Virus record (IMG/VR): IMGVR_UViG_3300038976_000028
Location: 1 to 30,713 of that record
Direction: 5' to 3' (one strand)
Source: a virus
Lineage: Duplodnaviria > Caudoviricetes
Length of the DNA: 30,713 bases
The position numbers were made by a program, and so were the translations under genes. Below are positions 7,356-30,473 of the stretch, one piece after another. Numbering within the stretch: position 1 is the stretch's first letter; each line of letters opens with the position of its first letter. Below the pieces are notes generated by a model. That model saw nothing but the letters and a program-made list of their open reading frames with translations, was not told the DNA's origin and ran no database searches.

Positions 7356-7832
7356 CTAGACCCTGGTCCGGACGTGGATGGTGAACGGGATGCGGGCCTG
7401 CAGCCCGGTCGGGCCCTGCTCCTGGAACAGCTCTCCGCCGGCAAACTCGGCCCACGTCGGCTGTGGCAGGCCCAGACCGATAGTCGCCGCGGCCCGCAGC
7501 ACCGCCCCGACCGCGTCGAGCACGGCCACCGCCGCGGCCCGCCGGCCGGGAACGTCTTCCGCGTCGCCGGACCACGACACGACGCAGCACTGGATGTCGA
7601 ACTCCTCGTCGCGGCGCAGCGCACCCAGCCCGGCCCACGTCTGCGACCAGCCGTCGGTCGCCGCGTAGTCCCCCTCCGGCTGCCCGTCGTACCCAACGAA
7701 CACCGCCGAGGTCGGCCTGTCCCCGATGACGACCGGCCCGTCATACACGGTCGCCAGCGAGGTCACCGACGGCGCCGCGTTCAGGGCGGCGACGACCGCG
7801 AGGATCGCGTCGTGCAGCCGCGACGTGGTCAC
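7356..7832 (-). CDS. Tail terminator / head-tail joining protein, 158 aa
   Basis: GTG at 7832 (GTGA overlap); VYDGP, RDEEFDIQC and FTIHVRTRV beta pattern; lies between adaptor and tube. Confidence 0.7.
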   Translation of the reverse strand: MTTSRLHDAILAVVAALNAAPSVTSLATVYDGPVVIGDRPTSAVFVGYDGQPEGDYAATDGWSQTWAGLGALRRDEEFDIQCCVVSWSGDAEDVPGRRAAAVAVLDAVGAVLRAAATIGLGLPQPTWAEFAGGELFQEQGPTGLQARIPFTIHVRTRV

Positions 7833-8677
7833 GCGACCGGCGGCATGACCGCGTCCGGGGCCAGCAACTCCAGCGCCCGGTTCGGCACGCCGAACCCCCA
7901 GCCGGGCAGGACCGTGACCTCCTCCGCGCCGAGGATCCGGGCCGGCGACGTCGGGCCGCCGTACTGCGTCTCCCACAGGTGCCCGATGATGATCAGCGCG
8001 GCCTCGGTGAAGTGCGCCGGGACCACCAGCCGGCCGGCGACGTAGGTGATCCGCTGCCCGCCGGAGATCCGCCACCGGTCCGGCCGCCACACCACCCCCG
8101 TCACCGGGTCGAAGTCCAGGGCGGTGAGCGGGTCGACCTGGCCGCCGGTGTAGATCGCGGCCAGAGAGGTCAGAGAGATGACCGGGGTGTGGTGCAAGCA
8201 GATCCGCGGCGCCGGGTGGGTGATGATGTCGACGAAGCTGCGGGGCATGACCGGGCCGACCCGCTGCTCGACCACGGCGGTGGTTGAGGCGATGATCGTG
8301 CGCAGGCCGGCGTCGTTGACGGTGGACGTCTTCCCGATGTCGGTCTTCGCGTCGTCGAGCGACACGATCGGGTAGGTCTCGGTCGGGTCCTCGACGTCGA
8401 AGACGTCGACGATCTGCCCGGCGCCGGTGCCGGTCGGCTGCCACCAGTACCGGTATCGGCCGGCCGTGAGCCCCGCCGGCACGTCGAAGTGGAACGTGCC
8501 GAGGCTGTCGCGGACGATCTCGGCCGGGCTGGGCCAGTGCTTCACCGTCGCCGTCGACCCGGGCAGGGCCAGCGCCCAGGTCAGGGTCAGCGCGGTCGGG
8601 TCCACGAGCGCCTGCGTGGCCATGTCCCGGATCGTCGTCGCCAGGGTGAACGGCTGCCCGGACGGATAACGGGGCAT
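7829..8677 (-). CDS. Head-tail adaptor (HK97 gp6 / SPP1 gp15-like) with an extra N-terminal Ig-like domain, 282 aa
   Basis: C-terminal part IVSLDDAK...ITYVAG..VPAHFTEAALIIIGHLWETQ; N-terminal ~95 aa LVDPTALTLT..GTFHFDV..GRYRYWW reads as a beta-sandwich. Confidence 0.8.
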   Translation of the reverse strand: MPRYPSGQPFTLATTIRDMATQALVDPTALTLTWALALPGSTATVKHWPSPAEIVRDSLGTFHFDVPAGLTAGRYRYWWQPTGTGAGQIVDVFDVEDPTETYPIVSLDDAKTDIGKTSTVNDAGLRTIIASTTAVVEQRVGPVMPRSFVDIITHPAPRICLHHTPVISLTSLAAIYTGGQVDPLTALDFDPVTGVVWRPDRWRISGGQRITYVAGRLVVPAHFTEAALIIIGHLWETQYGGPTSPARILGAEEVTVLPGWGFGVPNRALELLAPDAVMPPVA

Positions 8678-8678
8678 G

Positions 8679-9074
8679 TCAGGCCGCGATGGGGGTCAGC
8701 GCGAACGTGAGCGCGGTGATGTTGAGCGTGTCGCCGTTGGTCACCGTCTTCGACGCGGCGAGCGCGGCGGAGTAGAAGAACGTGCCAGCCGACGACGCCG
8801 ACCAGGCGGAGATGTGCGTGATCGTGTCGCCGCCGGTCGCGGAGAACGACACCGTGGCGACCAGCGACGCCGAGCCGGCCGAGCCGGCGTTCATGTTGAA
8901 CGCGGACCGGGTGGCGATGCCGGTGGATACTGCGGTCGTGCCGGACGCGCCCGGGTCGGCGGTGTGGCACTGGAGGAACATGGTGGTCACGCCGGTGAAC
9001 GTGGCCGCCGACGTGCCGCGGATCGTGTTGAGCCAGGCGTTGGCCGTGTTGACGGCGGATAGGCCGGCGGTCAC
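8679..9074 (-). CDS. Conserved small virion structural protein (fibre-base type), 131 aa
   Basis: LQCHTADPG, TITHISAWSASSAGTF and SKTVTNGDTL motifs, seen in phage structural modules; GAGGAGG RBS. Confidence 0.75.
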   Translation of the reverse strand: MTAGLSAVNTANAWLNTIRGTSAATFTGVTTMFLQCHTADPGASGTTAVSTGIATRSAFNMNAGSAGSASLVATVSFSATGGDTITHISAWSASSAGTFFYSAALAASKTVTNGDTLNITALTFALTPIAA

Positions 9075-9184
9075 TGGTCCTCCTCAGGCTCGGGGGGCGG
9101 CTTGGGTTCGCCGGGGATCACTTCGGCCTCGGCGATGAGGACCAACTCCCAGCGGTTCACGATCGGCTCGGGGTCGGGGGTCAT
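9071..9184 (-). CDS. 37-aa microprotein (not in ORF track)
   Basis: MTPDPEPIVNRWELVLIAEAEVIPGEPKPPPEPEEDQ*; ATGA overlap upstream and GTGA overlap downstream; fills the gap exactly. Confidence 0.7.
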   Translation of the reverse strand: MTPDPEPIVNRWELVLIAEAEVIPGEPKPPPEPEEDQ

Positions 9185-10314
9185 GCCGGGCCTCCTCGGG
9201 ACGACGCGGATGTCAGGGCGCTGGACGCCGTGGCCGCGGTGGTCAGGCCGCTGGTGGCGGTGCCGGCCGCGGTGAGTGCGCTACTGGCCGCGTCGGTGGT
9301 GAGCGCGCCGACGGTGAACGCGCCGACGGTCGTAGCCGTGGCGCTGAGACCAGCCGTGGTGGTGAGGGTGGCGGGGGCGCCGACGGCTGCCGCGGCGGCC
9401 GCGGTGAGGGTGGCCAGGCCGGCGGGCCCGGCCGTGGCCGGGCGAGTGACGGCGGCGGTTGCCGTCAGGGCTGCCGTGCCGGTGAGGCTCGCGGGGGCGA
9501 GGATGGGTGCGGTGCCGACCGAGCCGGTAGCCGTCAGCGTTCCGGCGACTGTCAGGGACGCCGCGCCGGCGGCGGTCACCGCCGACGCCGGCGCGAAGAT
9601 GGCCGTGGCCGCCGGCGCGGCGACCGCGTTGGCGGTGACTGCGACCGTCGGGGCCGCCGCGGCCGTGTTGGCCAGGGAAGCGGTGGCCGGCTGGGTGACG
9701 GCCGGTGTCGGGGTGACGGTGGCTGTGGTCGACGTTGCCGCCGTCGCGTTCGCCGTCACCGACACCGTCGAGGTGACGGCATCCGTAGCGGTCAGGGTGG
9801 CCTGGGCGAGGATCGGCGCGGTGCCGACGGTGGCCGTCGCGGTGAGCGTGGCGGTGACCGTCTGGGACGTGGTTCCGGTAGCGGTGACCGCGGCCACGGG
9901 GGTTGTGGCGACGGTCATCGTGGCGGCGGCCTGGGCGTTGACGGTGGCTGTGGCGGTTGGGGTCAGCGTGGCGGTGGCGGTGAGCGTGGCCGCGCCGTTC
10001 GCGGTCGCAGTCGCGGCCGGGGTTCGGGTGACCGTCGCCGTCAGGGTTCCGGCCGCGTTGGCGGTCGCCGCCACGGCCGGCGTGAGCGTGCCGGTTGCGG
10101 TGAGCGTCGCGTCCCCGGGCGCCGCTCGCACGGCCGTGCCGATGAGGGTGGCAGTGCCGGTGAGGTTGGCCGTGGTCGAGGTGACGACGGCGGCGGTCGC
10201 CGTGAGCCCGGCCGTTACGGTCAGGGTGGCCGTTGCGTTCTGTGTGGCCGGCGCGGACGCCAGCCGGTATGTCGGCCGGTGCTGGAGCGGGAAGCTACGG
10301 CCGTAGACGGCCAC
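9181..10314 (-). CDS. Thr/Ala-rich protein with ~15 copies of a 20-aa repeat; putative fibre or mucin-like virion protein, 377 aa
   Basis: Repeat units such as AATLTATATLTPTATATVNA; VGTAPILA occurs twice; almost no charged residues. Confidence 0.8.
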   Translation of the reverse strand: MAVYGRSFPLQHRPTYRLASAPATQNATATLTVTAGLTATAAVVTSTTANLTGTATLIGTAVRAAPGDATLTATGTLTPAVAATANAAGTLTATVTRTPAATATANGAATLTATATLTPTATATVNAQAAATMTVATTPVAAVTATGTTSQTVTATLTATATVGTAPILAQATLTATDAVTSTVSVTANATAATSTTATVTPTPAVTQPATASLANTAAAAPTVAVTANAVAAPAATAIFAPASAVTAAGAASLTVAGTLTATGSVGTAPILAPASLTGTAALTATAAVTRPATAGPAGLATLTAAAAAAVGAPATLTTTAGLSATATTVGAFTVGALTTDAASSALTAAGTATSGLTTAATASSALTSASSRGGPA

Positions 10315-10317
10315 AGG

Positions 10318-10785
10318 TCACTCCCGCCAGCGGATGTACCCGGCCGTGTTGCATGAGGCCGACGACGTCAGCCTGATGCCGAAGTTCGTTGACTCGGGCA
10401 CCGCGAACTCGTGGTCCAGTGGCCACTGGAACGGGAAGTACATGGGCAGCGGGATCGCAATGCCCGGGTACAGGGCCGCGCCCGCCGTGCCCTGCGTGAA
10501 CGTGGTCGGCTCGACCGTATCCGCGATCTTTGCGGCGGTGATCGCCGAGTCGATGGTGCGGTCACCGCGCCACTTCTGCGGGGTCGCCGCCGTGCCCGTG
10601 CCGGTTGTCGCGAACGTGCCGAACTGGATCAGCAGGTTTCCGACCACGGTCGCGTCGCAGCCGATGACCAGCTCCTCGATCTGCGGGGAGCAGTTCGCCG
10701 GGGACGGCAGCTCGAGGATCGTCTTCGCCGTCGCGGCGACCAGCGCGGTCGACGGCCACGCGATGTAGTACTGGACGACCGTCAC
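10318..10785 (-). CDS. Putative jelly-roll virion protein, 155 aa
   Basis: GGGAG RBS; beta-rich; ends FGIRLT...YIRWRE. Confidence 0.7.
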   Translation of the reverse strand: MTVVQYYIAWPSTALVAATAKTILELPSPANCSPQIEELVIGCDATVVGNLLIQFGTFATTGTGTAATPQKWRGDRTIDSAITAAKIADTVEPTTFTQGTAGAALYPGIAIPLPMYFPFQWPLDHEFAVPESTNFGIRLTSSASCNTAGYIRWRE

Positions 10786-10795
10786 CGGCGCTCCC

Positions 10796-11551
10796 TCACA
10801 GGTAGTACGTCCGGGCGACGGGCTGCCACAGCCGCGCCGGGACCAGCACGGGGGGCTCCGGGATAAGCGCGGGCAGCACCTCCAGCGTCGCCATGTGCCC
10901 GTGGGTGGACGGCGCGGTCGTGTTCGAGGTCACCGCGACCCCGGCGCCGACCGTGGCCGCGTTCTGCTGCTGCACCCAGCCGGCGTCACTGGCGTTGTCG
11001 GTGTACGACACGGCCCTGGCCTGCCCTGTCCCGGGGGTGCCCTGGGTCGCCCCGTCCCAGTTGTAGGCGGCCGACCACGCCCACGACAGGTGCCGCCGGC
11101 TGGTGTACGTGTTCGCGAACAGGCCGGCGGACGAGGTGTCGGTGACGGCCGTGCCGCCGTTCTGCACCGGGTCCGCGCCCGTGAACGTCACGATGGCCAG
11201 GGACGTGGCCAGCGCGGACGTGACCGTGGCGGTGATGGTCTGCGCGGACAGGGCCCCGGCCGCGTACGCGGTCAGGATCGCCGCGCCGCCCCCCACGGTG
11301 CCCGACGTAGTGTTGGCCTGCACGTTGACCACCCAGGCCAGCGACCCGCCGGCCACCGCCGCGGTCAGCGTGGTCGACACGGACGAGTCCCAGGTGACCG
11401 CGGCCAGCAGCAGCGTCCCCGCGGCGCAGGTGACGGACACAGCGGCGGTCGTGGTGCCCTGCCCAGGGGTGCGACTGGTGTCGGCGACGAGAGTGGCCGA
11501 GCCGCCGCCGCGTGGGAACGCCAGCGCCGATTCGAGCAACGGCGTGGTCAC
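10796..11551 (-). CDS. Thr/Ala/Ser-rich beta protein (paralog A'), 251 aa
   Basis: GTGA overlap; shares TGxDPV, TPGxG and ExLP motifs with 12868..13608. Confidence 0.75.
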   Translation of the reverse strand: MTTPLLESALAFPRGGGSATLVADTSRTPGQGTTTAAVSVTCAAGTLLLAAVTWDSSVSTTLTAAVAGGSLAWVVNVQANTTSGTVGGGAAILTAYAAGALSAQTITATVTSALATSLAIVTFTGADPVQNGGTAVTDTSSAGLFANTYTSRRHLSWAWSAAYNWDGATQGTPGTGQARAVSYTDNASDAGWVQQQNAATVGAGVAVTSNTTAPSTHGHMATLEVLPALIPEPPVLVPARLWQPVARTYYL

Positions 11552-12201
11552 GGCAGCGTGTACTCGGCCCAGGCCAGCGACGTGGCCGTCCGCCGGGTGT
11601 CGGAGGTGGTGCCGGCGTCGGCCTGGAACATGACCGCGCCCTCGCCGGCGGCCAGCACCAACTGCTCGTCCTCGGGCGGCGCCCAGGACTGCTCCTGCGG
11701 GGTCGCGCCGCCGACGGCTGTGGCATTAGCCCAGGGCAGGAACGCGAACACGTCCTCCGTCCGGGTGATCGTCATGCCGGTGTTCGCGGTCCGCAGACTC
11801 CCCGTCGCACCGGGAGTGCCCGCCACCGTCGCGGGCCGGGGCGTAACCGTGGCGCCGCTGGCCGTGCCGGTGAAGGTGAACGCGGTGATCAGGAACCGGG
11901 GGCTGGTCGGGGTCGCGAGCACCGACGCGGCCTGCGACGTGAACTGCACGTACCGCAGCGCCACCAGAACCGTAGAGCCGACCGGGTTGATCAGCCACCA
12001 CGACCCGGCAGGGAACGTATCGGCCGTCGCGGTGATGACCCGCACGCCGGCGTGCGCGAGGTACACGCCCGAAGCGATCCGCTGCGAGATCGGGATCACG
12101 TACTCTTCCTGGACCGTCCCCGGGCCCGAGACCGTGCGCTCCCGCATGTGGACCTGCTTGCCGCCCGCGTCGGCCGGCATCACGATCCGCTGCTCGCCCA
12201 C
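11548..12201 (-). CDS. Hypothetical structural protein (paralog B'), 217 aa
   Basis: About 60% identical to 12202..12855 by manual alignment. Confidence 0.85.
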   Translation of the reverse strand: MGEQRIVMPADAGGKQVHMRERTVSGPGTVQEEYVIPISQRIASGVYLAHAGVRVITATADTFPAGSWWLINPVGSTVLVALRYVQFTSQAASVLATPTSPRFLITAFTFTGTASGATVTPRPATVAGTPGATGSLRTANTGMTITRTEDVFAFLPWANATAVGGATPQEQSWAPPEDEQLVLAAGEGAVMFQADAGTTSDTRRTATSLAWAEYTLP

Positions 12202-12855
12202 CTACGGCACCGTGAACTCGGCCCAGGCCACGTTCGTCACGAACCGGCGCGTGTCCGACGTGGTACCCGCGTCGGGCTGGTACAGGACCAGGCCCTCCCC
12301 CGCGGCGAGGACCGGCTGCTCGTCTTCCTTCGGCGCATAGGTCAGGCCCGACGGGGCGTTCCCGCCGACCGCGGTCTCGTTCGCGTACGTCAGCCAGGCC
12401 AGCACCGACTGCGTGAGCGTCACCACGGACGTGACCTGCGTGGTCCGGATCGACGCGGTGGCGGTCGCGTACGACGAGAGGGCCTTCCGCGGCGCGATGT
12501 TCGTCCCGGCCGGGGTGCCGGTGAAGGTGAACGCCTGCAGCAGCAGCCGCGGGCTGGTCGCGGTCAGCAGCGCCGACCCGATCTGGGAGGACAGGTTCAC
12601 CGACCGCAGCGCCACCAGCACCGCGGAGCCGACCGGGTTGTACAGCCACCAGAACCCGGTCGACGTGCCGTTGGTGGCCGCGGCCTGCACGACGTGCACG
12701 CCGGTGTGCGCCAGGTAGACCCCGGACGCGACCCGCGCGGAGATCGGGATGACGTACGGCTCCTGCACCACACCCGGCCCGGACACGGTCCGTTCCCGGG
12801 TGTGGACAGCCTTCCCCACCGAGTCCGGCGGCAGGACGATCTTCTGCTCACCCAC
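12202..12855 (-). CDS. Hypothetical structural protein (paralog B), 217 aa
   Basis: Tandem duplicate; shares RERTVSGPG, WWLxNPVGS, DAGTTSDTRR and AWAE. Confidence 0.85.
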   Translation of the reverse strand: MGEQKIVLPPDSVGKAVHTRERTVSGPGVVQEPYVIPISARVASGVYLAHTGVHVVQAAATNGTSTGFWWLYNPVGSAVLVALRSVNLSSQIGSALLTATSPRLLLQAFTFTGTPAGTNIAPRKALSSYATATASIRTTQVTSVVTLTQSVLAWLTYANETAVGGNAPSGLTYAPKEDEQPVLAAGEGLVLYQPDAGTTSDTRRFVTNVAWAEFTVP

Positions 12856-12867
12856 CGCCGCCCCCTC

Positions 12868-13608
12868 TCACCACAGGCCGACGCCGACGTCCCGCAGCAC
12901 ATCCGTCCCCTGCGACACCTCCGCCGGGCCGGCCGGCGCGGACGGCAGCAGCTCCACCCAGCAGAAATGCCAGTCACCGCCGGCCGTCAGGTTGTCCACC
13001 TCCAACGCCGTGTACGTGCCCGACACCCCGTCCGGGGCGGCCCGGGCCAGCACGATGTAGGAGATCGCCGTGCCGACCTGCCCGGCCGCGACCACCGAAC
13101 AGCCGGCGCCGGGCGTCACCGACGCGACCGCCCCCGTCTGCCAGTCGCACGCCACCAGCATCCCGAGAGACCCGGTGACAGTGGCCAGGTAGACGACCGT
13201 GATCGACGTGCCGTTCTGCTGCCGCGACCCGCCCGCCGCACCCACCGGCGTCACCGGGTCGTGCCCGGTGACCACCTGCAGGGCCAGCGCCGAGTCGCAC
13301 TGCGACGACAGGCCGTTCGTCGCAGTCGCCGTCGACGACCCCGGCGAACCGGCCACCGCCGAATGCCACACCGCCGCCTGCCCGAGCATCGTCGGCGCAC
13401 CCGAATTCGCGTGGTCCCACGCGTCCCGGGTCCACGTGTGCGCCGGCGACGACGCGAACGACGGCGCCGGCGGATCCGCGCCTCCGGTGTTCCCCGCCCA
13501 CAGCGCCACCTGCAGGCCGTCGGCCGGTGGTGTGAACGCGGCCGTCGCGTTGGCCTGCGCCGCCGTGGTGGCGACCGCCGGGGACGACACGTCGACGGCC
13601 AGGCCCAC
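12868..13608 (-). CDS. Thr/Ala/Ser-rich beta protein (paralog A), 246 aa
   Basis: Tightly packed ORF with high GC3; motif similarity to 10796..11551. Confidence 0.75.
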   Translation of the reverse strand: MGLAVDVSSPAVATTAAQANATAAFTPPADGLQVALWAGNTGGADPPAPSFASSPAHTWTRDAWDHANSGAPTMLGQAAVWHSAVAGSPGSSTATATNGLSSQCDSALALQVVTGHDPVTPVGAAGGSRQQNGTSITVVYLATVTGSLGMLVACDWQTGAVASVTPGAGCSVVAAGQVGTAISYIVLARAAPDGVSGTYTALEVDNLTAGGDWHFCWVELLPSAPAGPAEVSQGTDVLRDVGVGLW

Positions 13609-13611
13609 CGG

Positions 13612-13941
13612 TCAGACCGTGACGTTCGTCAGGCCGGACAGGTTCTTCGCGTTGAAGAAGAAGTTGTTCGCCGCCGCGGACGAGCCGATCGTGGCGACGC
13701 CCTGCGTGCCGGTGCCGTGCGCGATCTGCCGCAGCGCGTCAAGGTCCGCGAACGACGCCTGGATCGCGTCCGCGTCCGCCTGCACGATGCCCAGCGCGAT
13801 CAGGTACGCGTCGTTGTGGGCGGAGTCGTTCAGCCACGCGTTGAACAGTCGGACGTCGTCCAGCGCCTTCCACACCGCCACGACGAGCCTGCCGGCCTGC
13901 GCGTTGACGTCCGGTGCGGTGACCGGGAATCCAGCGGCCAT
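13612..13941 (-). CDS. Helical hypothetical protein, 109 aa
   Basis: ATG at 13941, 1 nt after the upstream stop; MAAGFPVTAPDVNAQAGRLVV. Confidence 0.75.
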   Translation of the reverse strand: MAAGFPVTAPDVNAQAGRLVVAVWKALDDVRLFNAWLNDSAHNDAYLIALGIVQADADAIQASFADLDALRQIAHGTGTQGVATIGSSAAANNFFFNAKNLSGLTNVTV

Positions 13942-13942
13942 C

Positions 13943-14194
13943 TCAGGCGCCACCCGTCCGTGTCCTAGCCTTTGCCGCCTGCGAGGCCGGCGCCGGGGGT
14001 GGCGAGGGCGGCGCAGGAGCAGGTGCCGGCTCCACGTCGTACTGCACGACCAGCGGCTCGAACAGATCCTCACGGCCTGCCATGATCGGATGCCCGGCGC
14101 GGACCACCGTGTCCGGGCCGATGAACACCGGCGACCCGTCCACGTCAAACGTGCACGGCTCCTTGCCGCGGAACAGGTCAGGCTGGACTGTCAC
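13943..14194 (-). CDS. Small capsid-adjacent protein, 83 aa
   Basis: GGAGG RBS; VVRAGHPIMAGREDLFEP motif, which I recall from small genes that follow the MCP in actinophages. Confidence 0.7.
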   Translation of the reverse strand: MTVQPDLFRGKEPCTFDVDGSPVFIGPDTVVRAGHPIMAGREDLFEPLVVQYDVEPAPAPAPPSPPPAPASQAAKARTRTGGA

Positions 14195-16061
14195 CGACGT
14201 CCTCCAGGGGTCTCGCGATGATGTACGGCGCGGACCGGCCGCCCGGCAGCGGCGCCACGATCCGCTCCGGGTCGTAGCCCACCTCGGCGAGCAGCGCCGT
14301 CAGGTCCGCGAGGTCGTAGAAGCCGTAGATGGAGTGGTCCTCGATGAACAGGGTCGGCCGGGCGCGGGCCAGCGTGCCGGCCAGGCCGCGGATCGCGTGC
14401 AGGTCCGCGCCCTCCACGTCCAGCTTGACCAGGTCGGGGCTGACGTCGGAGAGGACCGCGTCTAGCGGCCGCGCCTCCACTGTGTCTTCGCCCCCGTCGG
14501 CGGGCAGGACCCGGGTGGACCCGCCGGTGACCTTCCCGTTCGGGTCGGACAGCCGCAGCCGGGTCTCGCAGTCCCACGCAGCCATCTCGACCACGGCCAC
14601 GTTCGTCACGTCGTTCAGCGCGATGTGCGCGCGCAGGACCGCAGCGGTCGCCGGGTTCGCCTCCACCGCCACCACCGTCGACGCCTTCCGCGCCAGCCGC
14701 AGCGCCCACCGGCCCACATGCGCGCCCACATCCACGTACACGCCGCCAGCGGGCAGCAGCCCGTCGAGCACCGGCGCCAGGGACTCCTCGTGGCCGACCG
14801 CGATCCAGTCGTCGGAGTTCCCACCCCGCTGCACCCACCGCAGCCCGTCGGCCTCCGCGGTCGGCAGCGGCACCGTGCCGTGGTTTCGGCCCGGAAGTCG
14901 GACCGGGACCGCGCCGGCGTACTGCTCGAGCATCTCCAGCGCCGGCTTCCAGTACTGCGTCAGCACCCGGTCGGCGTCATAGCCGGCCGCGAAGTCCCGC
15001 GCCGACGCCCGCACGGCCGGCTGCCGGGCGTGCTCGTACGCCTTCTCCCAGGCTTCGACGATCCCGCTGATGATCGGCGCGTGCCACCACGACTCCGCCC
15101 ACGGATGCCAGTACGGCTGCGTCGGCACCAGCCACCCCGACCCGCACAGCTCGGTCCCCGCCGAACCGTCGGAGACGACCACCGGCGTCCCGCACGCCTG
15201 CGCCTCCAGCACCGGCAGGCCGAAGCCCTCACCCCACGAGCAGTTCGACAGCACGTCCGCGCAGCCCATCAGCGCGGCCACGTCCTCCGGCCCGTACAGG
15301 CCGCAGATCTGCTTGTACTGGTTCGTGAACTGCACGGAGTCCTGAATGTCGAGGTCGTAGACCAGCTTCGTCAGGTTCACCCCGCCGCCCGTGTCGAGGA
15401 GGCTGTGGACCAGCAGCACCGCGTCCGGGTGCCGGCGGCGGAACTCGGCGAACGCCTGGAACTGCTCGCCCCAGCCCTTCCGCGGCGGCGTCTTGTCCTT
15501 GTTCGCCGCGACGATCGCGATCACGAACGCGTCCGGGTCCACGTCGAGCATGGCCCGGGCCTGCGCCCGCTCGGCGTCGGACAGCGGCCGGAACACGCCC
15601 GTGTCGACGGCGTGCGGCACGTACACCGGCTGCAGCCCGGCCGCGGTCAGCTCCCGCTCGCCGTACCGGGACATGGCGATGGGCAGCGCCCCCGAGGCGC
15701 GGAAGAACTGCACGTCGGCCGGCGGGACGGGGTGGGACTGGATCGGCGCCCACAGCGCGGTCGCGAAGTCCCGCAGCGGTGCCGGGTCGATCGCCCACGC
15801 GTCGTACAGGACCAGGATCAGGCCCGGCTGGTCGCCGAACATCATCCGCGCGTGGGGGGCGCGGACGTCGTTGGAGTAGGCCGCCATCCCCGACGGCAGG
15901 ACCAGGGTGTCGTTCCAGTTCAGCGTCTGGCCTTCGAGGCCGTTCATCGCTGCCACGGCGACCTCGTGGCCCAGGGCGGGCAGGCGGGACGCGAGCAGGG
16001 CGGTCTGCCCGCCGTATCCGGACCCCGCTGACGGCGGGTTGCTGCTGATCAGGATGCGCAT
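14178..16061 (-). CDS. GT4 (GT-B) glycosyltransferase fused to a FkbM-family SAM methyltransferase, 627 aa
   Basis: ATG at 16061 after GGGAGG. GT4 motifs SGYG, PHAVD, RKG and EGFGLPVLEAQACGTPVV; FkbM motifs VDVGAHVG, VEANP and VKLDVEGAD. Confidence 0.92.
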   Translation of the reverse strand: MRILISSNPPSAGSGYGGQTALLASRLPALGHEVAVAAMNGLEGQTLNWNDTLVLPSGMAAYSNDVRAPHARMMFGDQPGLILVLYDAWAIDPAPLRDFATALWAPIQSHPVPPADVQFFRASGALPIAMSRYGERELTAAGLQPVYVPHAVDTGVFRPLSDAERAQARAMLDVDPDAFVIAIVAANKDKTPPRKGWGEQFQAFAEFRRRHPDAVLLVHSLLDTGGGVNLTKLVYDLDIQDSVQFTNQYKQICGLYGPEDVAALMGCADVLSNCSWGEGFGLPVLEAQACGTPVVVSDGSAGTELCGSGWLVPTQPYWHPWAESWWHAPIISGIVEAWEKAYEHARQPAVRASARDFAAGYDADRVLTQYWKPALEMLEQYAGAVPVRLPGRNHGTVPLPTAEADGLRWVQRGGNSDDWIAVGHEESLAPVLDGLLPAGGVYVDVGAHVGRWALRLARKASTVVAVEANPATAAVLRAHIALNDVTNVAVVEMAAWDCETRLRLSDPNGKVTGGSTRVLPADGGEDTVEARPLDAVLSDVSPDLVKLDVEGADLHAIRGLAGTLARARPTLFIEDHSIYGFYDLADLTALLAEVGYDPERIVAPLPGGRSAPYIIARPLEDVGDSPA

Positions 16062-16077: not shown

Positions 16078-16113
16078 GCCGGCCCGGGCCGCATGGGTAC
16101 GACCCGGGCCGGC
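16078..16113 (-). terminator. Strong GC hairpin after the capsid gene (terminator or mRNA stabiliser; no U-tract)
   Basis: GCCGGCCCGGG-UCGUA-CCCA-UGCGG-CCCGGGCCGGC: 11 perfect pairs plus 5 more including G:U pairs. Confidence 0.7.
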
Positions 16114-16136: not shown

Positions 16137-17654
16137 TCAGGTGCTCTTCACCTGGAGCATGCGGAACGCGTTGTCCGCGAGCACCTTCGACGAGTTGAAC
16201 CAGATGGCCAGCACCCCGCGCTGACCGGTCGGGTACCGGTTCGCCGACCCGAACAGGTGCGGGATCAGCTCGATGCCCATCCCCACCCGGTCCACGATCA
16301 GGAACCGGGAGAAGTCACCCTGCAGCATGACCAGGTTGCCCGTGCCGTTGGTCGTCGACATCGTGCTCAGCTCGTACTTCGGGTAGCCGTTGAACTGCGC
16401 GCCCATGCTGCCCGACGGCCGGGCGAACGGGTCACCCGCGGCCGACGCCTGCGCCTGGAACAGCGCCCGGAACTTGTTGAAGATCGTCTTGGAGGCGACG
16501 ATCGCCGAGTTCGCGATGAACCGCGGCGCCATCGCGTTCTCCAGCAGGTACACGTCGCCCGCGGCGAGCACGCCCGAGCCGGCGGTCTGCACGTACGACG
16601 CGGTGCCAAGGGTCGCCACGATCCCCGACGGGTTCGGCGCGGTGCCGTTCCCCGTCGCGAACGCGGTCGCCTCCTCCACGTCCTTCGCGTCCATCAGCAG
16701 GTTCGTCATCTGTGTCCGCAGCGCACCCCAGGACACATCCAGCTCGATCGAGAACGGGATGAAGCCCTGCACGCGGGTGGTCCGGACCGACGGCTGGATG
16801 AACGCCGGGTCGCCGGTGCCCTGCTCCTGGCCTTCCGTGCCACGCGACACGGTCACACCGGCGGAGGTGACCCCGTCCCATTCCTTCCCGGTGATGGTCT
16901 CCACCCGGCTGATCTGCCGCAGCGGGTTCACCACCCCGTTGGACGTGAGGATCACGGTCGGGTCCAGCTGGAACGGGACGGCGTAGCCGCCGGCGGAGTC
17001 GGTGCCCAGCGACAACGCGCGGGACTCCTCCGCGGTCAGCCCCGCGGTCGACTGCATCCCCAACATCTTCCCGAACGCCCGGTCGTACAGCGGGCTACCG
17101 GTGACCAGGATGCGGCGGGCCAGGGTGCCGTTCTCGTCGTCGATGGTGTCCAGAAGAGCCGCGACCCGCTGCTGCGCCTCCTCCTTCGACGGGGCGCCCC
17201 GCACACCGGTCGCGCCCGGGTACCGGGCCTGCTCGACCGCCCGCTGCGCGTACTCCCGGTACAGCACCGGGACCTCGTCGAGGTTCCGGGCCCGGTTCCG
17301 GATCGCCGGCAGGTCGTAGATGTTCTCCCGGGGGTGGAACGCCGGCCCGGCCTGCCCATAGCGGCTGCCGCCGCCGGCGGGGGCGAAGCCGGCGCGGGAG
17401 TTGTCGACCCGCTCCGTGTGCTCCGGGTGCTCGTCATTGATCTGCCGCAGGTACGCGGCCCGCTCCGACGCGTCGTCGATGGCCCGGTCGTGCTCGGTCA
17501 GCTCGTTCTGCAGCGACCGCCACTCCGACCGGGCCTCGACGGTCAGCTCCGCGCCGGAGTACTCGGTGTCGATCTCGGTGAGCCGGGCCCGGATCTCGCT
17601 CTGCCGCGCGACCCGCTCCTCGACCGTCATTGTCTCCCGGTCCGTGTCCGGCAT
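16137..17654 (-). CDS. HK97-fold major capsid protein with coiled-coil scaffold (delta) domain; internal start, 505 aa
   Basis: ATG at 17654 after AAGGAG; coiled-coil N-terminus; GGYAVPFQLDP, GNGT..PSG and GDFSRFLIVDRVG motifs. Confidence 0.9.
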   Translation of the reverse strand: MPDTDRETMTVEERVARQSEIRARLTEIDTEYSGAELTVEARSEWRSLQNELTEHDRAIDDASERAAYLRQINDEHPEHTERVDNSRAGFAPAGGGSRYGQAGPAFHPRENIYDLPAIRNRARNLDEVPVLYREYAQRAVEQARYPGATGVRGAPSKEEAQQRVAALLDTIDDENGTLARRILVTGSPLYDRAFGKMLGMQSTAGLTAEESRALSLGTDSAGGYAVPFQLDPTVILTSNGVVNPLRQISRVETITGKEWDGVTSAGVTVSRGTEGQEQGTGDPAFIQPSVRTTRVQGFIPFSIELDVSWGALRTQMTNLLMDAKDVEEATAFATGNGTAPNPSGIVATLGTASYVQTAGSGVLAAGDVYLLENAMAPRFIANSAIVASKTIFNKFRALFQAQASAAGDPFARPSGSMGAQFNGYPKYELSTMSTTNGTGNLVMLQGDFSRFLIVDRVGMGIELIPHLFGSANRYPTGQRGVLAIWFNSSKVLADNAFRMLQVKST

Positions 17655-18734
17655 GGTCCCACTCCTTGTCGTCTTCGGCGCCGGGTGCTGCTGCGGCTCG
17701 GCTCTCTGGGCTGCCGGTGCGGGGTCGCGGCCGGAGCTGCTGGTGCTGTCGGGGGCCATGTCGGCCAGGTGCGCCTGGAGGTGCGCCCGGGCCGCCTCGG
17801 GATCGGCCAACTGCATCTGCGACACCTGGTCGAGCGCGACCCGGACCGCGTCCGGGTGTGCCGGCTCCCCCGGGCCGGGATGGTGGGGCAGCGCCCACGA
17901 CGCCCGCTGGGCGGGGTCGCCGCCCGACTGGCCGGCGCACACCTCCGCGTAGGCGACGGCCGGGTCCTCGGCGTCCGCGCAGGCCGCCATCGCGGCCTCA
18001 CCGTCCCAGGCCGCCATGTCCATCGCCGCCCGCTGCGCCCCGCCCGCTGGCTCGACCGGCGGTGTGGCCAGGACGATCGTCTCCCGCCCCTGCTGATCCG
18101 GCTGGGCATCGTCGTCGTCCATGCGTGTCCTCCTGGACCGGACGCCGAGGATCACCGCGTCCTCGTAGGCCGGGATCGGCGTCGGCCCGTACTCGATCAG
18201 CGCGATCTGCTGGCGGGTGACCAGCGGCAGCACCCCGTCACCGCCCGGCCCGTACCGGCCATACCGCGGCAGCGGCGGATCCGACTCCAAGAACACGCCG
18301 GTGTACGACATGCCGGTCAGCGACCCGGACCGGACCGCCTCCAGCACCCGGTCGGCCTCCGGGTCGCTGTTGTACAGGGTGTGCGTCAGCAGGCCGGTGC
18401 GGTCCGGCTGGATCAGCGTCGGCTTCCCCAGCGGCACCGACCACTGGTCCGACGGCGTCCCCGACAGCGTCTTCGCGTGGTTGTACACCGAGAAGATCCG
18501 CCCGGCACGCTCCCGGACCGACTTCGTCATCGACTCCGGCGCGTTCTGCTCCCGGTAGTGCCCGTCGGTGTCGTCGATCTCCGTCGGCACGTTCCACACC
18601 GTCGCGTAGGCCACGACCGTACGGCCCTTCCCGTCCGCGCGGATGTGGATGTCGTCGAGCAGCACCGACCGGGTCACCACCAGCGACGAGTCGCCCTCCA
18701 GTGCCCGCCGGACCCGGCCGCCGTCAGCGCTCAC
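16137..18734 (-). CDS. Prohead protease-linker domain-major capsid protein fusion ORF, 865 aa
   Basis: GTG at 18734 overlaps the portal stop; HK97-type protease motifs YNH, GMSY and EYGPTPIPAY; no stop before the capsid region. Confidence 0.85.
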   Translation of the reverse strand: MSADGGRVRRALEGDSSLVVTRSVLLDDIHIRADGKGRTVVAYATVWNVPTEIDDTDGHYREQNAPESMTKSVRERAGRIFSVYNHAKTLSGTPSDQWSVPLGKPTLIQPDRTGLLTHTLYNSDPEADRVLEAVRSGSLTGMSYTGVFLESDPPLPRYGRYGPGGDGVLPLVTRQQIALIEYGPTPIPAYEDAVILGVRSRRTRMDDDDAQPDQQGRETIVLATPPVEPAGGAQRAAMDMAAWDGEAAMAACADAEDPAVAYAEVCAGQSGGDPAQRASWALPHHPGPGEPAHPDAVRVALDQVSQMQLADPEAARAHLQAHLADMAPDSTSSSGRDPAPAAQRAEPQQHPAPKTTRSGTMPDTDRETMTVEERVARQSEIRARLTEIDTEYSGAELTVEARSEWRSLQNELTEHDRAIDDASERAAYLRQINDEHPEHTERVDNSRAGFAPAGGGSRYGQAGPAFHPRENIYDLPAIRNRARNLDEVPVLYREYAQRAVEQARYPGATGVRGAPSKEEAQQRVAALLDTIDDENGTLARRILVTGSPLYDRAFGKMLGMQSTAGLTAEESRALSLGTDSAGGYAVPFQLDPTVILTSNGVVNPLRQISRVETITGKEWDGVTSAGVTVSRGTEGQEQGTGDPAFIQPSVRTTRVQGFIPFSIELDVSWGALRTQMTNLLMDAKDVEEATAFATGNGTAPNPSGIVATLGTASYVQTAGSGVLAAGDVYLLENAMAPRFIANSAIVASKTIFNKFRALFQAQASAAGDPFARPSGSMGAQFNGYPKYELSTMSTTNGTGNLVMLQGDFSRFLIVDRVGMGIELIPHLFGSANRYPTGQRGVLAIWFNSSKVLADNAFRMLQVKST

Positions 18735-22429: not shown

Positions 22430-22520
22430 TGACCACTTCGCGTGACGGCCGGAGAATGTTGACTGTGCGGGGTCATATACGTCCGTGATGTCCGGTTTGA
22501 CCCTCCCCCCTACCCCTGTC
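22430..22520. other. Putative cos / packaging initiation region
   Basis: Non-coding gap between HNH and terS containing GGGGTAGGGGGGAGGG and GACCCCGC on the minus strand; this is where HK97-like cos phages have their ends. Confidence 0.5.
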
Positions 22521-22854
22521 ACCACCGGGGTGGGGTTATCACCGAGCGTGTCCGCCGCGGCCTGTACAGCGCATTGCGTAGGCGTGCGCCCGCCTGCCTG
22601 TTGCAGCGGGCGTGCTCTAGGTCGAGCGGGCCCTGACCGCCGAGCGCGCGGGACTGGTCGTGGCCGAGGTCGAGGCGGCAGTGGAAGCAGCGGCCGTCGG
22701 GTCGGTCGGGGCGCAGGGTGCAGTGCCGGGGGTGGACCATCGGGTGGCCGCAGCGACGGCAGGGGCGCGGGCCGCGGTCGAGGAGCGCTGTCATCTGCCG
22801 GCGGCGCTCGGTCTGGTGTTCGGCGCCGAGGCCGCGCTGGGTCGTGGTGGCCAT
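22519..22854 (-). CDS. HNH endonuclease (terminase-associated, HK97 gp74-like), 111 aa
   Basis: GLGAEHQ..R, CRRCG, DLGH and EHARCN motifs; directly upstream of terS. Confidence 0.85.
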   Translation of the reverse strand: MATTTQRGLGAEHQTERRRQMTALLDRGPRPCRRCGHPMVHPRHCTLRPDRPDGRCFHCRLDLGHDQSRALGGQGPLDLEHARCNRQAGARLRNALYRPRRTRSVITPPRW

Positions 22855-29225: not shown

Positions 29226-30473
29226 TCACGGCTGGCCTCCCACCGCGCGGATGCCCATCTCGTCCCACACAGCGCGCCACGGCCATGCCGTGTCCCGCTC
29301 GAGCGCCGCCGGCCACGACCGCTCGTCACGGGAGCCGCGGAACCACTCCACGTGCATCAGCCGCTCCCGGACGTTGCGGTCCTTCCGCAGCGCCAGGCCG
29401 AACTCCGGCCATCGCGACCACAGCGCGCTGCCGAACGGCCGCAGGTCCCGCTGCCCCTGCTGCGCCAGTGGGGCGTGGTGCTCGAGCCACATCGTCAGGC
29501 CGTACCGCTCCCGCAGCCGGTCCAGCACCGCCCGCGCCTCGTCCGCGGTCTGCTCAGGGCCGTCGCCGTGACTGGCGAACGCCTTGTACAGCGGGCCCAG
29601 CACCAGCAGCGCCGGCCGGGTCTCGGCGATGACCCGCTCGAGCAGCCGGGCATCGCCAGGGCGGCGAATGTCCAGGCCGCCGGGCTTCGTCCACCGGAAC
29701 GCCCGCCCATCGGCCCAGATCCCCAGGTTCCGCGCCCGGTCCACCAGGTGCCGCGTCTTGCGGCGGACCAGCGCCGGCGGGTTCTCGAGATCGACGATCA
29801 GCGTCCGCTGCGGAGGGATGGGGGTGTCCGGCTCGAACGGGTGCCGGCCGGCCGCGGTCAGCACTGCCACCTGCCGGCCCAGCGTCGACTTTCCGGCGCC
29901 CTCCCCGGCGACCACGATCACCCGGTCCTGCCGTTCGAGCAGCCCGGGGATCACCCAGTCGTACTGGTCGTCGGTCTCGTCCACGAACGACTCGAGCGTC
30001 GACAGGCCAGCGACCGGCTGCTCCTCGGCGGGCGCGTCGACGGACACCTGCAGCTCGAGCAGCAACGTCGCCGCGTTGTCGAGCACCACGTCGATGTCGG
30101 ACTGCTCGGCGATCTGCGACAGCCGGACGCCGAGCGCGGCGATGCGCCGCCGCTGGGCGTACTCGCGGACCTTCCCGGCGTACCAGGGGGCGTTGCCGTA
30201 CGCCGGGCAGTCGGTGACCAAGTCGTGCAGCAGGCCGCCGCCGGCGAGCCGGGCCAGGTGCCCGACGCGGCGCAGCTCTTCGATCACCATCAGGTGGTCG
30301 GCGCCGGCTCCGTCCCGGTCGGCGACGGCGTGGATGGCGTTGAAGATCGTGGCGTGGCGCTGGTCGGCGAAGTCGTCCGCGGTCAGCGTGCCGACGGTCT
30401 CGACCGTGCGGGGCCGGATCAGCAGGGCGCCGAGCAGGGCACGCTCGGCCTCGAGCGCCGGGTCGGTGCTCAC
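29226..30473 (-). CDS. Replicative helicase: DnaB N-terminal domain plus RecA-like (AAA_25) ATPase, 415 aa
   Basis: EAERALLGALL..DF...HATIFNAI DnaB-N motif; Walker A GEGAGKST; EHHA and RPFGSALW; GTG at 30473. Confidence 0.9.
   Translation of the reverse strand: MSTDPALEAERALLGALLIRPRTVETVGTLTADDFADQRHATIFNAIHAVADRDGAGADHLMVIEELRRVGHLARLAGGGLLHDLVTDCPAYGNAPWYAGKVREYAQRRRIAALGVRLSQIAEQSDIDVVLDNAATLLLELQVSVDAPAEEQPVAGLSTLESFVDETDDQYDWVIPGLLERQDRVIVVAGEGAGKSTLGRQVAVLTAAGRHPFEPDTPIPPQRTLIVDLENPPALVRRKTRHLVDRARNLGIWADGRAFRWTKPGGLDIRRPGDARLLERVIAETRPALLVLGPLYKAFASHGDGPEQTADEARAVLDRLRERYGLTMWLEHHAPLAQQGQRDLRPFGSALWSRWPEFGLALRKDRNVRERLMHVEWFRGSRDERSWPAALERDTAWPWRAVWDEMGIRAVGGQP

Follow-up and report, generated by a model that had tools for sequence, protein, structure and literature searches.

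What is built by the eleven genes that lie between the capsid and adaptor genes of this phage, and what would the glycosyltransferase (GT) among them modify? The source is an uncultured high-GC tailed phage, represented by a contig that breaks off within a tail gene; the window is this whole stretch of DNA (30,713 nucleotides, 30.7 kb), and all of its genes lie on the minus strand. Between the capsid stop (16137) and the adaptor start (8677) lie 7,459 bp, filled by 11 ORFs, the GT and ten others including an ORF of 37 aa. Neighbouring genes in the block are spaced by -17 to +12 bp, and a gap of 75 bp follows the capsid gene. The features are as follows.

16137..18680, minus strand, prohead protease-major capsid protein fusion (PF04586, E 2e-7; PF05065, E 1.5e-22; start from the gene call)
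16078..16113, minus strand, GC-rich hairpin between the capsid and GT genes, a possible but weak attenuator (z -2.0; 7 of 200 shuffles fold equally well)
14178..16061, minus strand, GT4 glycosyltransferase (approximately residues 1-370) joined to an FkbM-family SAM methyltransferase (441-598), 627 aa, from profile matches and conserved motifs
13943..14194, minus strand, 83-aa protein (g83), overlapping the GT stop and adjoining the GT in relatives
13612..13941, minus strand, 109-aa protein (g109), usually just upstream of an A-domain gene
12868..13608, minus strand, A1, 246 aa, likely a fibre-tip domain, from its position in long rope-type proteins
12202..12855, minus strand, B1, 217 aa, predicted to fold as one jelly roll bearing an N-terminal arm (pLDDT 88.5)
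11548..12201, minus strand, B2, 217 aa, paralogue of B1 (60% identity, E 7e-87)
10796..11551, minus strand, A2, 251 aa, distantly paralogous to A1 (profile E 4e-8 before inclusion)
10318..10785, minus strand, J, 155 aa, possible cap for the rope N-terminus, from gene order
9181..10314, minus strand, rope, 377 aa, a Thr/Ala protein containing 10-15 units of 20 residues each, from autocorrelation; its C-terminal tail is distinct
9071..9184, minus strand, acidic ORF of 37 aa, coupled to the bead gene, from gene order in relatives
8679..9074, minus strand, bead, a Gp80-family fibre protein of 131 aa (PF23140, E 5e-20; phrog_240; profile match to 8jou_a)
7829..8677, minus strand, head-tail adaptor, 282 aa, whose N-terminal Ig-like domain (1-97) is likely a fused collar (phrog_442, E 7e-15; model)

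The gene spacing suggests that the block is one likely late operon. A promoter scan returned none, terminator-like sites were no more frequent than expected by chance, and the hairpin was missed by the terminator scan. An earlier note on this DNA had described ten co-transcribed genes (~7.4 kb) parting capsid from adaptor, which agrees with the measured interval, the co-transcription being read from the spacing. Its inventory of a glycosyltransferase-methyltransferase fusion, two paralogue pairs, a jelly-roll-like protein (a fold predicted here for B1), a Thr/Ala repeat protein, an adaptor with an extra Ig-like domain and no sugar-synthesis genes also agrees with the results given here. Its description of the cassette as Thr/Ser-rich holds for seven proteins (Thr+Ser 19-32%), but the tail tube (20%) and one tail protein (19%) are as rich, and g83, g109 and the 37-aa ORF contain only 3-10%. 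The block splits into two separable modules, a chain-like fibre and a capsid-linked GT4-FkbM enzyme, and precedents are already known for both.

The bead is a member of the Gp80 family, scoring 72.6 bits against PF23140 (cut-off 27) and matching 8jou_a (8JOU) by profile at E 4.8e-10; sequence matches to the 110-aa proteins of 9C39/9MT4 reach E 0.2-0.4 only. ORFs of 36-47 aa also occur just ahead of the Gp80 gene in L030, L031, L035, L044, L050, L051 and L073. The period of the rope appears as autocorrelation at lags 20 and 40 (z 8.4 against 300 shuffles), with 13 units scored, or 10 under a stricter cut-off, and the conserved unit was seen in 45 stretches. Alternate residues of the repeat are Thr and would lie on one face of a strand. 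A periodic neighbour (z ≥ 5) was found in 38 of 50 non-redundant Gp80 loci, in 34 of these at lag 20 or 40, and 7 of the 12 loci lacking one have less than 1.3 kb downstream. No solved rope was matched in the rope profile search. The bead-position genes of the L014 and L147 groups had no profile match to Gp80 or PDB; their putative bead role is judged by position. The block likely builds a neck fibre of the GP4/Bas63 "beads-on-a-rope" type, with folds that are predicted and an assembly deduced from the genes, and the neck appendage that had been proposed can be given this name on account of its Gp80 bead, periodic rope and Ig-bearing adaptor.

The second module is an enzyme for which both domains are matched (PF13692, E 6e-12; PF05050, E 1e-17; TIGR01444, E 2e-25). 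In the GT4 part, a GT-B domain of the retaining type, PF00534/PF13692 score above cut-off, E278 and E286 of the E-x7-E motif are present, the second Glu being Gln in most homologues, and R194-K195 supply the basic residues for phosphate binding. TIGR01444 scores 89.8 bits (cut-off 37.7) in the FkbM part, where the SAM-binding motif columns are invariant. Across 15 homologues H150, R194-K195 and E278 do not vary, nor do methyltransferase columns D444-G446 and K546-E550. The enzyme looks intact, and virion glycosylation with a methylated sugar is plausible. A lone GT4 is not necessarily what starts a glycan on protein, and the window holds no GT-A partner for it. No sugar-synthesis genes were found among the window genes scanned. 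An epimerase is likewise lacking from four GT4-FkbM relatives (79-98% complete), which is consistent with host-derived sugar donors.

The position of the enzyme points to the capsid. A capsid gene lies at most 1.5 kb upstream of the GT in 17 of 20 relatives, and GT identity tracks the capsid (rho 0.77) more than the adaptor (rho 0.57) over 15 loci. In the close relatives L007, L008 and L011 (69-89% complete) the GT is 75-79% identical and stands beside the capsid gene, and their contigs gave no bead, rope or accessory-gene match; the PF23140 search of the contigs of fibre-less relatives was run with three positive controls, all detected. Periodic matches in fibre-less contigs were rejected as ropes, being dinucleotide-type runs, off-frame ORFs or ~600-aa tape-measure-sized ORFs. 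An 83-aa gene is found directly behind the GT in L007-L011, L013 and L025, and it goes with the GT/capsid module, not the fibre. The cultured phages phiPsal1, with the gene order capsid, GT4, methyltransferase, GT2, neck protein, and Mae-JY09, which resembles it in having a GT4 homologue behind the capsid, have no fibre block annotated; among the 2018 papers none naming phiPsal1 was found. Since the GT stays by the capsid gene even in fibre-less relatives, the enzyme likely coats the capsid and not the fibre alone, and it likely puts a methylated sugar on virion proteins, capsid foremost. Ser/Thr in the last two capsid residues (counted by eye) is common with and without the GT; with no clear enrichment where the GT is present, it was discarded as an uninformative acceptor signature.

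The alternative that survives best, though unlikely, is one integrated system in which GT4-FkbM mainly glycosylates the Thr/Ser-rich fibre proteins to give a neck fibre coated with methyl-sugars. Among adaptor-selected loci, 8 have GT and rope, 4 GT only, 1 rope only and 11 neither, so that eight of nine rope loci carry a GT (Fisher p 0.009); phylogenetically independent pairs, which number 3.4 same, 0.1 opposite and 3.5 unchanged, do not make the association significant (median p 0.25). Opposite pairs are nearly absent, and GT and rope may share a function. The L044 record, which has Gp80, J and rope, is a complete provirus whose GT is of the GT2 type. Unrelated GT sets (GT2, GT4, epimerases, methyltransferases) occupy the same slot before fibre genes, and the alternating Thr of the repeat would suit a glycosylated face, but beta-strand repeats explain Thr richness equally well. 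Of the three GT-less loci, two have rope units with 24-25% Thr+Ser, where those of 13 GT loci have 26-37%, but the third GT-less rope reaches 39%, and Gp80 proteins of GT-less loci (25-32%) are on par with those of GT loci. Against this reading, the nearest capsid relatives (85% identity) keep the GT and lack the cassette, and L051, L073, L090, L111 and L005 have ropes with no GT in the capsid-adaptor interval, on GT-less contigs that are only 29-54% complete. Retention of the GT by a capsid without cassette genes, together with GT-less bead-and-rope cassettes, weakens the claim that the cassette is the substrate. The earlier note had placed enzyme and substrates in one operon, a link that is partly supported: the co-occurrence stands as a raw count and is no longer significant on phylogenetic correction. 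The pairing of GT4/FkbM with the capsid gene was recovered, and 13 of 20 GT4-FkbM relatives do have a cassette. Cassettes independent of the GT, which that note had named as contrary to its proposal, do exist in part, on the incomplete contigs just described.

The adaptor and the accessory genes bear on where the fibre is attached. The adaptor model (pLDDT 79) aligns through its core with 6tba_2A (Z 11.8, rmsd 4.0, 159 aligned), and residues 1-97 of the predicted structure match Ig folds at Z 8-9; no adaptor match was found in GenBank phages, or in PDB by sequence. This predicted Ig-like domain likely serves as the collar. Ropes accompany 31 of 44 Ig-bearing adaptors and none of 7 short ones. 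Similarity of rope C-termini follows that of Ig domains, given the adaptor core, weakly (partial r 0.14, p 0.004; mid-rope r 0.03; 44 loci). The A1 domain is N-terminal to the repeats of long rope-type proteins in 12 other loci (e.g. L031, L035, L054, L051), and g109, with 7 homologous genes in the fetched loci, precedes A1-like or A1-rope genes in L001, L002, L013, L031, L035 and L046. A1 and A2 are remote paralogues, since the iterated A1 profile reaches A2 although BLASTP gives no match at E<0.01; A1 and g83 had no family match in profile searches, and the nearest atlas clusters of A2 are unnamed viral proteins. B1 has 83 sequence relatives at E ≤ 0.001, itself included; its BFVD matches are uncharacterised phage proteins, the atlas yields only unnamed viral clusters, and Foldseek gave no PDB match at E ≤ 0.001. 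J is usually directly upstream of the rope gene, and its role is suggested by the order of the genes, and by N-termini that the ropes have in common, in L012, L044 and L046; its profile has 19 matches, some from duplicate contigs, compares with the B profile at E 0.004 (probability 9%), and its family has no match in PDB.

It is improbable that these accessory genes decorate the capsid as cement trimers or vertex turrets, with a fibre docked on the head and not hung from the neck. Among the nearest folds of B1 are a phage cement and turrets of archaeal viruses (Z 7.7-8.2), the fibres of GP4 are docked on its capsid, and rope genes occur also with other head modules and other adaptors; the B1 scores, however, lie in an unspecific range that takes in TNF-like folds (best Z 8.2), A-type domains are fused to ropes in other loci, and none of the seven loci with an Ig-less adaptor has a rope, though L013 has the cassette behind a short adaptor. 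Slightly less probable still is an off-virion enzyme, carried as late-operon cargo, whose target would be a glycan of the host surface, a glycolipid, a small molecule or DNA (e.g. in superinfection exclusion), for although its best solved relatives are lipid/small-molecule GT4s (PIM mannosyltransferase, MshA-type; E ~1e-6) and its PHROG category is moron/host takeover, its position behind the capsid gene is fixed across divergent phages, it has no membrane segment (peak 19-residue hydropathy 1.28) and it is tightly packed amid structural genes.

With moderate confidence we favour a reading in which a single operon, likely a late one, encodes two modules: a predicted neck fibre of the beads-on-a-rope kind, and a GT4-FkbM enzyme linked to the capsid gene, which likely adds methylated sugar to virion proteins, the capsid being the most probable target. 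Gp80 dimers would clamp along the 377-aa rope, one per 20-residue repeat (10-15 dimers), each repeat completing the incomplete beta-sandwich of the beads as in GP4 and Bas63, and the C-terminal tail of the rope would dock on the adaptor-fused Ig-like domain. J, A1/A2 and B1/B2 would be accessories that form the tip or decorate the fibre, probably to attach to surfaces of the host or the environment, and the enzyme would use host nucleotide-sugar and SAM in the cytoplasm. A wider version is offered tentatively and is rather doubtful: GT4-FkbM would put methyl-capped sugars on the capsid and also on the rope-and-bead fibre, on the Thr face that points outward, and siphoviruses of probable actinobacterial hosts would exchange enzyme blocks and fibre tips in one capsid-adaptor slot. 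Natural relatives with the enzyme only, the fibre only, both or neither make the glycosylation target directly testable.

The enzyme module has several known counterparts. Phage GTs are reported to modify capsid and tail tube in Che8, Corndog and Myrna (Freeman et al. 2023, as cited in PMC11256854, PMC11600133, PMC12363180), which resembles the present case in combining a phage GT with a methyltransferase and in the capsid and tail tube as proposed targets. As described there, an O-methyltransferase is followed by three separate GTs in Cluster O phages, and the GTs of F1 are found close to the 3' end, whereas here there is a single GT4-FkbM fusion; homology of the Che8 gp110/Corndog gp38 type was not found by tblastn against 50,697 phage records (7 matches at E ≤ 1e-5, no Mycobacterium phage). 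PBCV-1 A064R, a GT-methyltransferase fusion that builds a methylated capsid glycan (PMC9614988), is analogous by description in its GT with C-terminal SAM methyltransferase, but differs in its GT-A-type and novel domains, algal virus and N-glycan. Pontimonas phage phiPsal1 and Microcystis phage Mae-JY09 have homologous GT4s (35-39% identity) just behind the capsid, as here, but with no FkbM fusion. The capsid-linked GT4-FkbM is a compact candidate virion glycosylation enzyme, unlike those of mycobacteriophages.

For the fibre, the closest system is that of the Ralstonia podophage GP4, described in the available text as gp80 dimers, a separate rope and an Ig-like collar (PDB 8JOU; PMC13730344, PMC12609058). 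Both have a Gp80-family bead, a rope-like protein as its own gene and an Ig-like domain at the adaptor; here, in a siphovirus of a probably actinobacterial host known from genes alone, the Ig domain is fused to the adaptor, extra accessory genes are present, and the rope is long enough for 10-15 dimers against 5 in GP4. Passage of the rope through a groove and its anchoring by an Ig-like collar have been reported (PMC12609058). In the collar-whisker of myophages Bas63/Sf14 (PMC12609058) and the A1002 fibre (PMC13730344), dimers are threaded on a rope by strand completion, as proposed here; A1002 has 11 dimers over approximately residues 243-468 (PMC13730344), i.e. ~20 residues each by our own calculation. 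In Bas63 the rope forms one protein with the collar and in A1002 with the nozzle; here it is a free gene. The A-1(L) neck fibre is, in the available part of its description, a different design of trimeric gp81 beads, no rope and a 15-mer neck (PMC10966104); the present bead matches GP4 gp80 and the adaptor ordinary adaptors, in a comparison with proteins other than those of A-1(L). In a literature search that covered the main text of mostly openly available papers, neither glycosylation of a chain-like fibre nor a siphophage bearing one was reported. The chain-like fibres in the papers found belong to podophages and myophages that infect Gram-negative bacteria. The present locus and its relatives carry the design over to siphoviruses of probable actinobacterial hosts, and add to it an adaptor-fused collar, a ruler whose 20-residue units can be counted, and tip domains that can be exchanged, some of them enzymatic.

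The window is the complete 30,713-bp virus record (GC ~71%), and the record itself is a fragment, because its end falls within a tail gene. The genes on the minus strand follow the order terminase, portal, protease-capsid fusion, a gene block, adaptor, tail tube, tape measure and tail proteins. The block and its borders are marked by:

16137..18680, minus strand, protease-capsid fusion gene
14178..16061, minus strand, gene of the 627-aa GT4-FkbM glycosyltransferase-methyltransferase fusion, first ORF of the block
7829..8677, minus strand, adaptor gene

A tail protein with CBM_4_9 and LamG domains (491-2902), an HNH endonuclease close to the terminase genes (22519-22854) and a DnaB-like helicase (29226-30473) are also encoded. 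The gene block that the earlier note saw between capsid and adaptor is real and comprises 11 closely spaced ORFs across 7,459 bp. The GT4-FkbM fusion heads it as described, with both domains and the conserved motifs present and a membrane segment absent. Two pairs of accessory proteins are paralogous; B1 and B2 are 60% identical, and A1 and A2 are remotely related. B1 is predicted to be a single jelly roll, with unspecific structural neighbours. The extra Ig-like domain of the adaptor occupies residues 1-97 of the predicted model, the core of which resembles the adaptors of a gene transfer agent particle, DT57C and Mycofy1. High Thr+Ser content was found in seven cassette proteins, but the tail tube protein also reaches ~20%. 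The observation thus stands, and its interpretation changes in part.

The 131-aa bead protein belongs to the Gp80 family (PF23140), and its profile matches the 140-aa gp80 of phage GP4 (8JOU, E 4.8e-10). According to two reports, Gp80-type proteins are dimers strung on a rope, which supplies what their incomplete beta-sandwich lacks, and the GP4 and Bas63 fibres are anchored at the adaptor by an Ig-like collar (PMC13730344, PMC12609058). The 377-aa Thr/Ala protein, the putative rope, shows a period of 20 residues (z 8.4), with no peak above z 3.1 in A1, A2, B1, Gp80 or the tail tube; 10 to 13 units score, and the repeat region could fit about 15. A scan for Gp80 retained 80 of 410 confirmed loci, or 50 after removal of near-duplicates. 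A periodic neighbour at z ≥5 was present in 38 of these 50 (lag 20 or 40 in 34), and seven of the 12 loci without one end within 1.3 kb. Other small proteins hold the bead position beside ropes of period 18-22 (L014:13585-14112, L147:6682-7110, L176:5130-5753); they have no Gp80 match by profile and are possibly further bead families. A second type of rope-position protein, rich in Pro, Arg and Trp, has a period of ~32-36 where scored and lies directly before the adaptor (L002:12954-14135, L004:12444-13523, L005:10421-12335, L013:11662-13545, where it instead lies behind a short adaptor, and L025:8822-10972). These five loci gave no Gp80 match, and the C-terminal tail of the L002 protein resembles that of the Thr/Ala rope. 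Mycobacteriophage Gardann and relatives (L029:7001-9673) encode their Gp80 homologue, gp23, within a set of minor tail genes and ahead of a 761-aa protein, a placement by which the bead may be used at the tail too. Long microsatellite-like tracts of dinucleotide phase were seen in contigs G006 and G007 (L188:3-1110, L190, L191).

Of 51 intervals from capsid to adaptor, 44 have a long adaptor, and 31 of these contain a rope; the seven with a short adaptor have none. L013, outside this set, is an exception in which a short adaptor has a cassette behind it. With the adaptor core held constant, the Ig domain shows weak covariation with the last 55 rope residues (partial r 0.14, p 0.004, 44 loci) and none with the middle of the rope. 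The closest partner of the window for both parts is L153. The A domain precedes the repeats N-terminally in long proteins at 12 other loci, which suggests a position at the fibre tip. The gene of the accessory protein J mostly lies just ahead of the rope gene, and glycoside hydrolase, LamG or Fn3 domains occupy the same slot in some relatives. Apiosidase-like glycoside hydrolase domains at or near the rope position (L019:16002-20264, L023:11013-14864, L062:11038-14346, L016:9318-10661) are suggestive of enzymatic neck fibres. Bead-rope binding and fibre assembly in the window phage are inferred.

A capsid gene lies at most 1.5 kb upstream in 17 of 20 viral GT4-FkbM loci; two end there and one shows none. 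Downstream, a cassette follows in 13, four (L007, L008, L010, L011) lead directly to neck and tail genes, and three end early or are ambiguous. The entire contigs of L007, L008 and L011 (53, 52 and 48 kb; 79, 69 and 89% complete) carry enzymes 75-79% identical to that of the window, and held no Gp80, no rope and no match to 11 bead and accessory profiles. L007 and L008 are also the closest capsid relatives (85%). Their portal genes (L007:39-2972, L008:398-3871; 977 and 1,157 aa) are far longer than that of the window and carry two large insertions, which may be inteins or inserted domains. Pairwise enzyme identity tracks the capsid (rho 0.77) more than the adaptor (0.57) across 15 loci, the pairs being non-independent. 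In two cultured phages a GT4 homologue follows the capsid gene, and no fibre block is annotated; in a third, TJE1, the homologue belongs to a sugar cluster located upstream of the terminase. Many relatives have a second, Methyltransf_24/CmcI-like methyltransferase fused to or following the enzyme (L009:5736-8210, L012:10010-12442, L014:11877-12545), which the window lacks, and several have an extra GT4-like gene flanked by the neck genes and that of the tail tube (L002:15283-16323, L004:15244-16275).

The earlier note took the enzyme and its substrates as one system. Among 25 intervals found by adaptor query only, reduced to 24 by exclusion of L127 (a GT-like gene without family match), eight have a glycosyltransferase (GT) and a rope, four a GT alone (including L163, with a borderline rope at z 4.4), one a rope alone and 11 neither of the two (Fisher p 0.009); the nine contigs seeding the adaptor alignment, all with both, lie outside this count. 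On a capsid tree of 49 rows (quick method, long-branch warnings, two rows removed for short capsid sequence), seven independent pairs gave 3.4 concordant, 0.1 discordant and 3.5 unchanged (median p 0.25). Ropes also occur without a GT in the interval at L051, L073, L090, L111 and L005, whose contigs, only 29-54% complete, gave no PF00534 or PF00535 match. Co-occurrence thus amounts to a tendency rather than a dependence. Fibre glycosylation is possible, because Thr alternates along the rope repeat; against it, Gp80 is equally hydroxyl-rich in loci without a GT.

The capsid-adaptor slot is most likely a collector of surface modules. In other lineages it holds GT2s, GT4s, epimerases, sugar C-methyltransferases or an aminotransferase; 2OG-Fe(II) oxygenases, polysaccharide deacetylase, cytidylyltransferase and DegT aminotransferase were noted upstream of the adaptor in L044:6756-7388, L108:7304-8390, L062:8688-9104 and L130:1277-2791. 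The fibre module would probably form beaded neck fibres for reversible binding or neck bracing, roles proposed for the Bas63 whiskers (PMC12609058). The putative enzyme would most likely add and methylate a sugar on a virion protein common to all its carriers, with the capsid as best candidate. Precedents are mycobacteriophage capsid and tail-tube glycosylation (PMC11256854, PMC11600133, PMC12363180) and the glycosyltransferase-methyltransferase fusion A064R (PMC9614988). The closest relatives of solved structure have lipids and small molecules as substrates, which counts against a virion-protein target. No epimerase was found in four GT4-FkbM relatives, while the positive control had one, which fits host-supplied sugar donors. 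The host would be actinobacterial, because a Kutzneria MAG contig carries an enzyme 79% identical, one homologue of the B proteins belongs to a Pseudonocardiaceae MAG, and 352 of 379 bead-gene matches among GenBank phage records are Mycobacterium phages; phage contigs can be misassigned by MAG binning.

No full-length GT4-FkbM match was found among 50,697 GenBank phage records, and a literature search, with most subscription journals outside its coverage, returned no report of a chain-like fibre that is glycosylated or of one that belongs to a siphophage. The setting, the putative collar fused to the adaptor, the unnamed accessory families and the GT4-FkbM family are new. The bead-and-rope fibre and the phage glycosyltransferase are both of kinds already known. 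In A1002, 11 dimers span ~226 residues (computed from PMC13730344), a residue-to-dimer ratio near that of the window rope.
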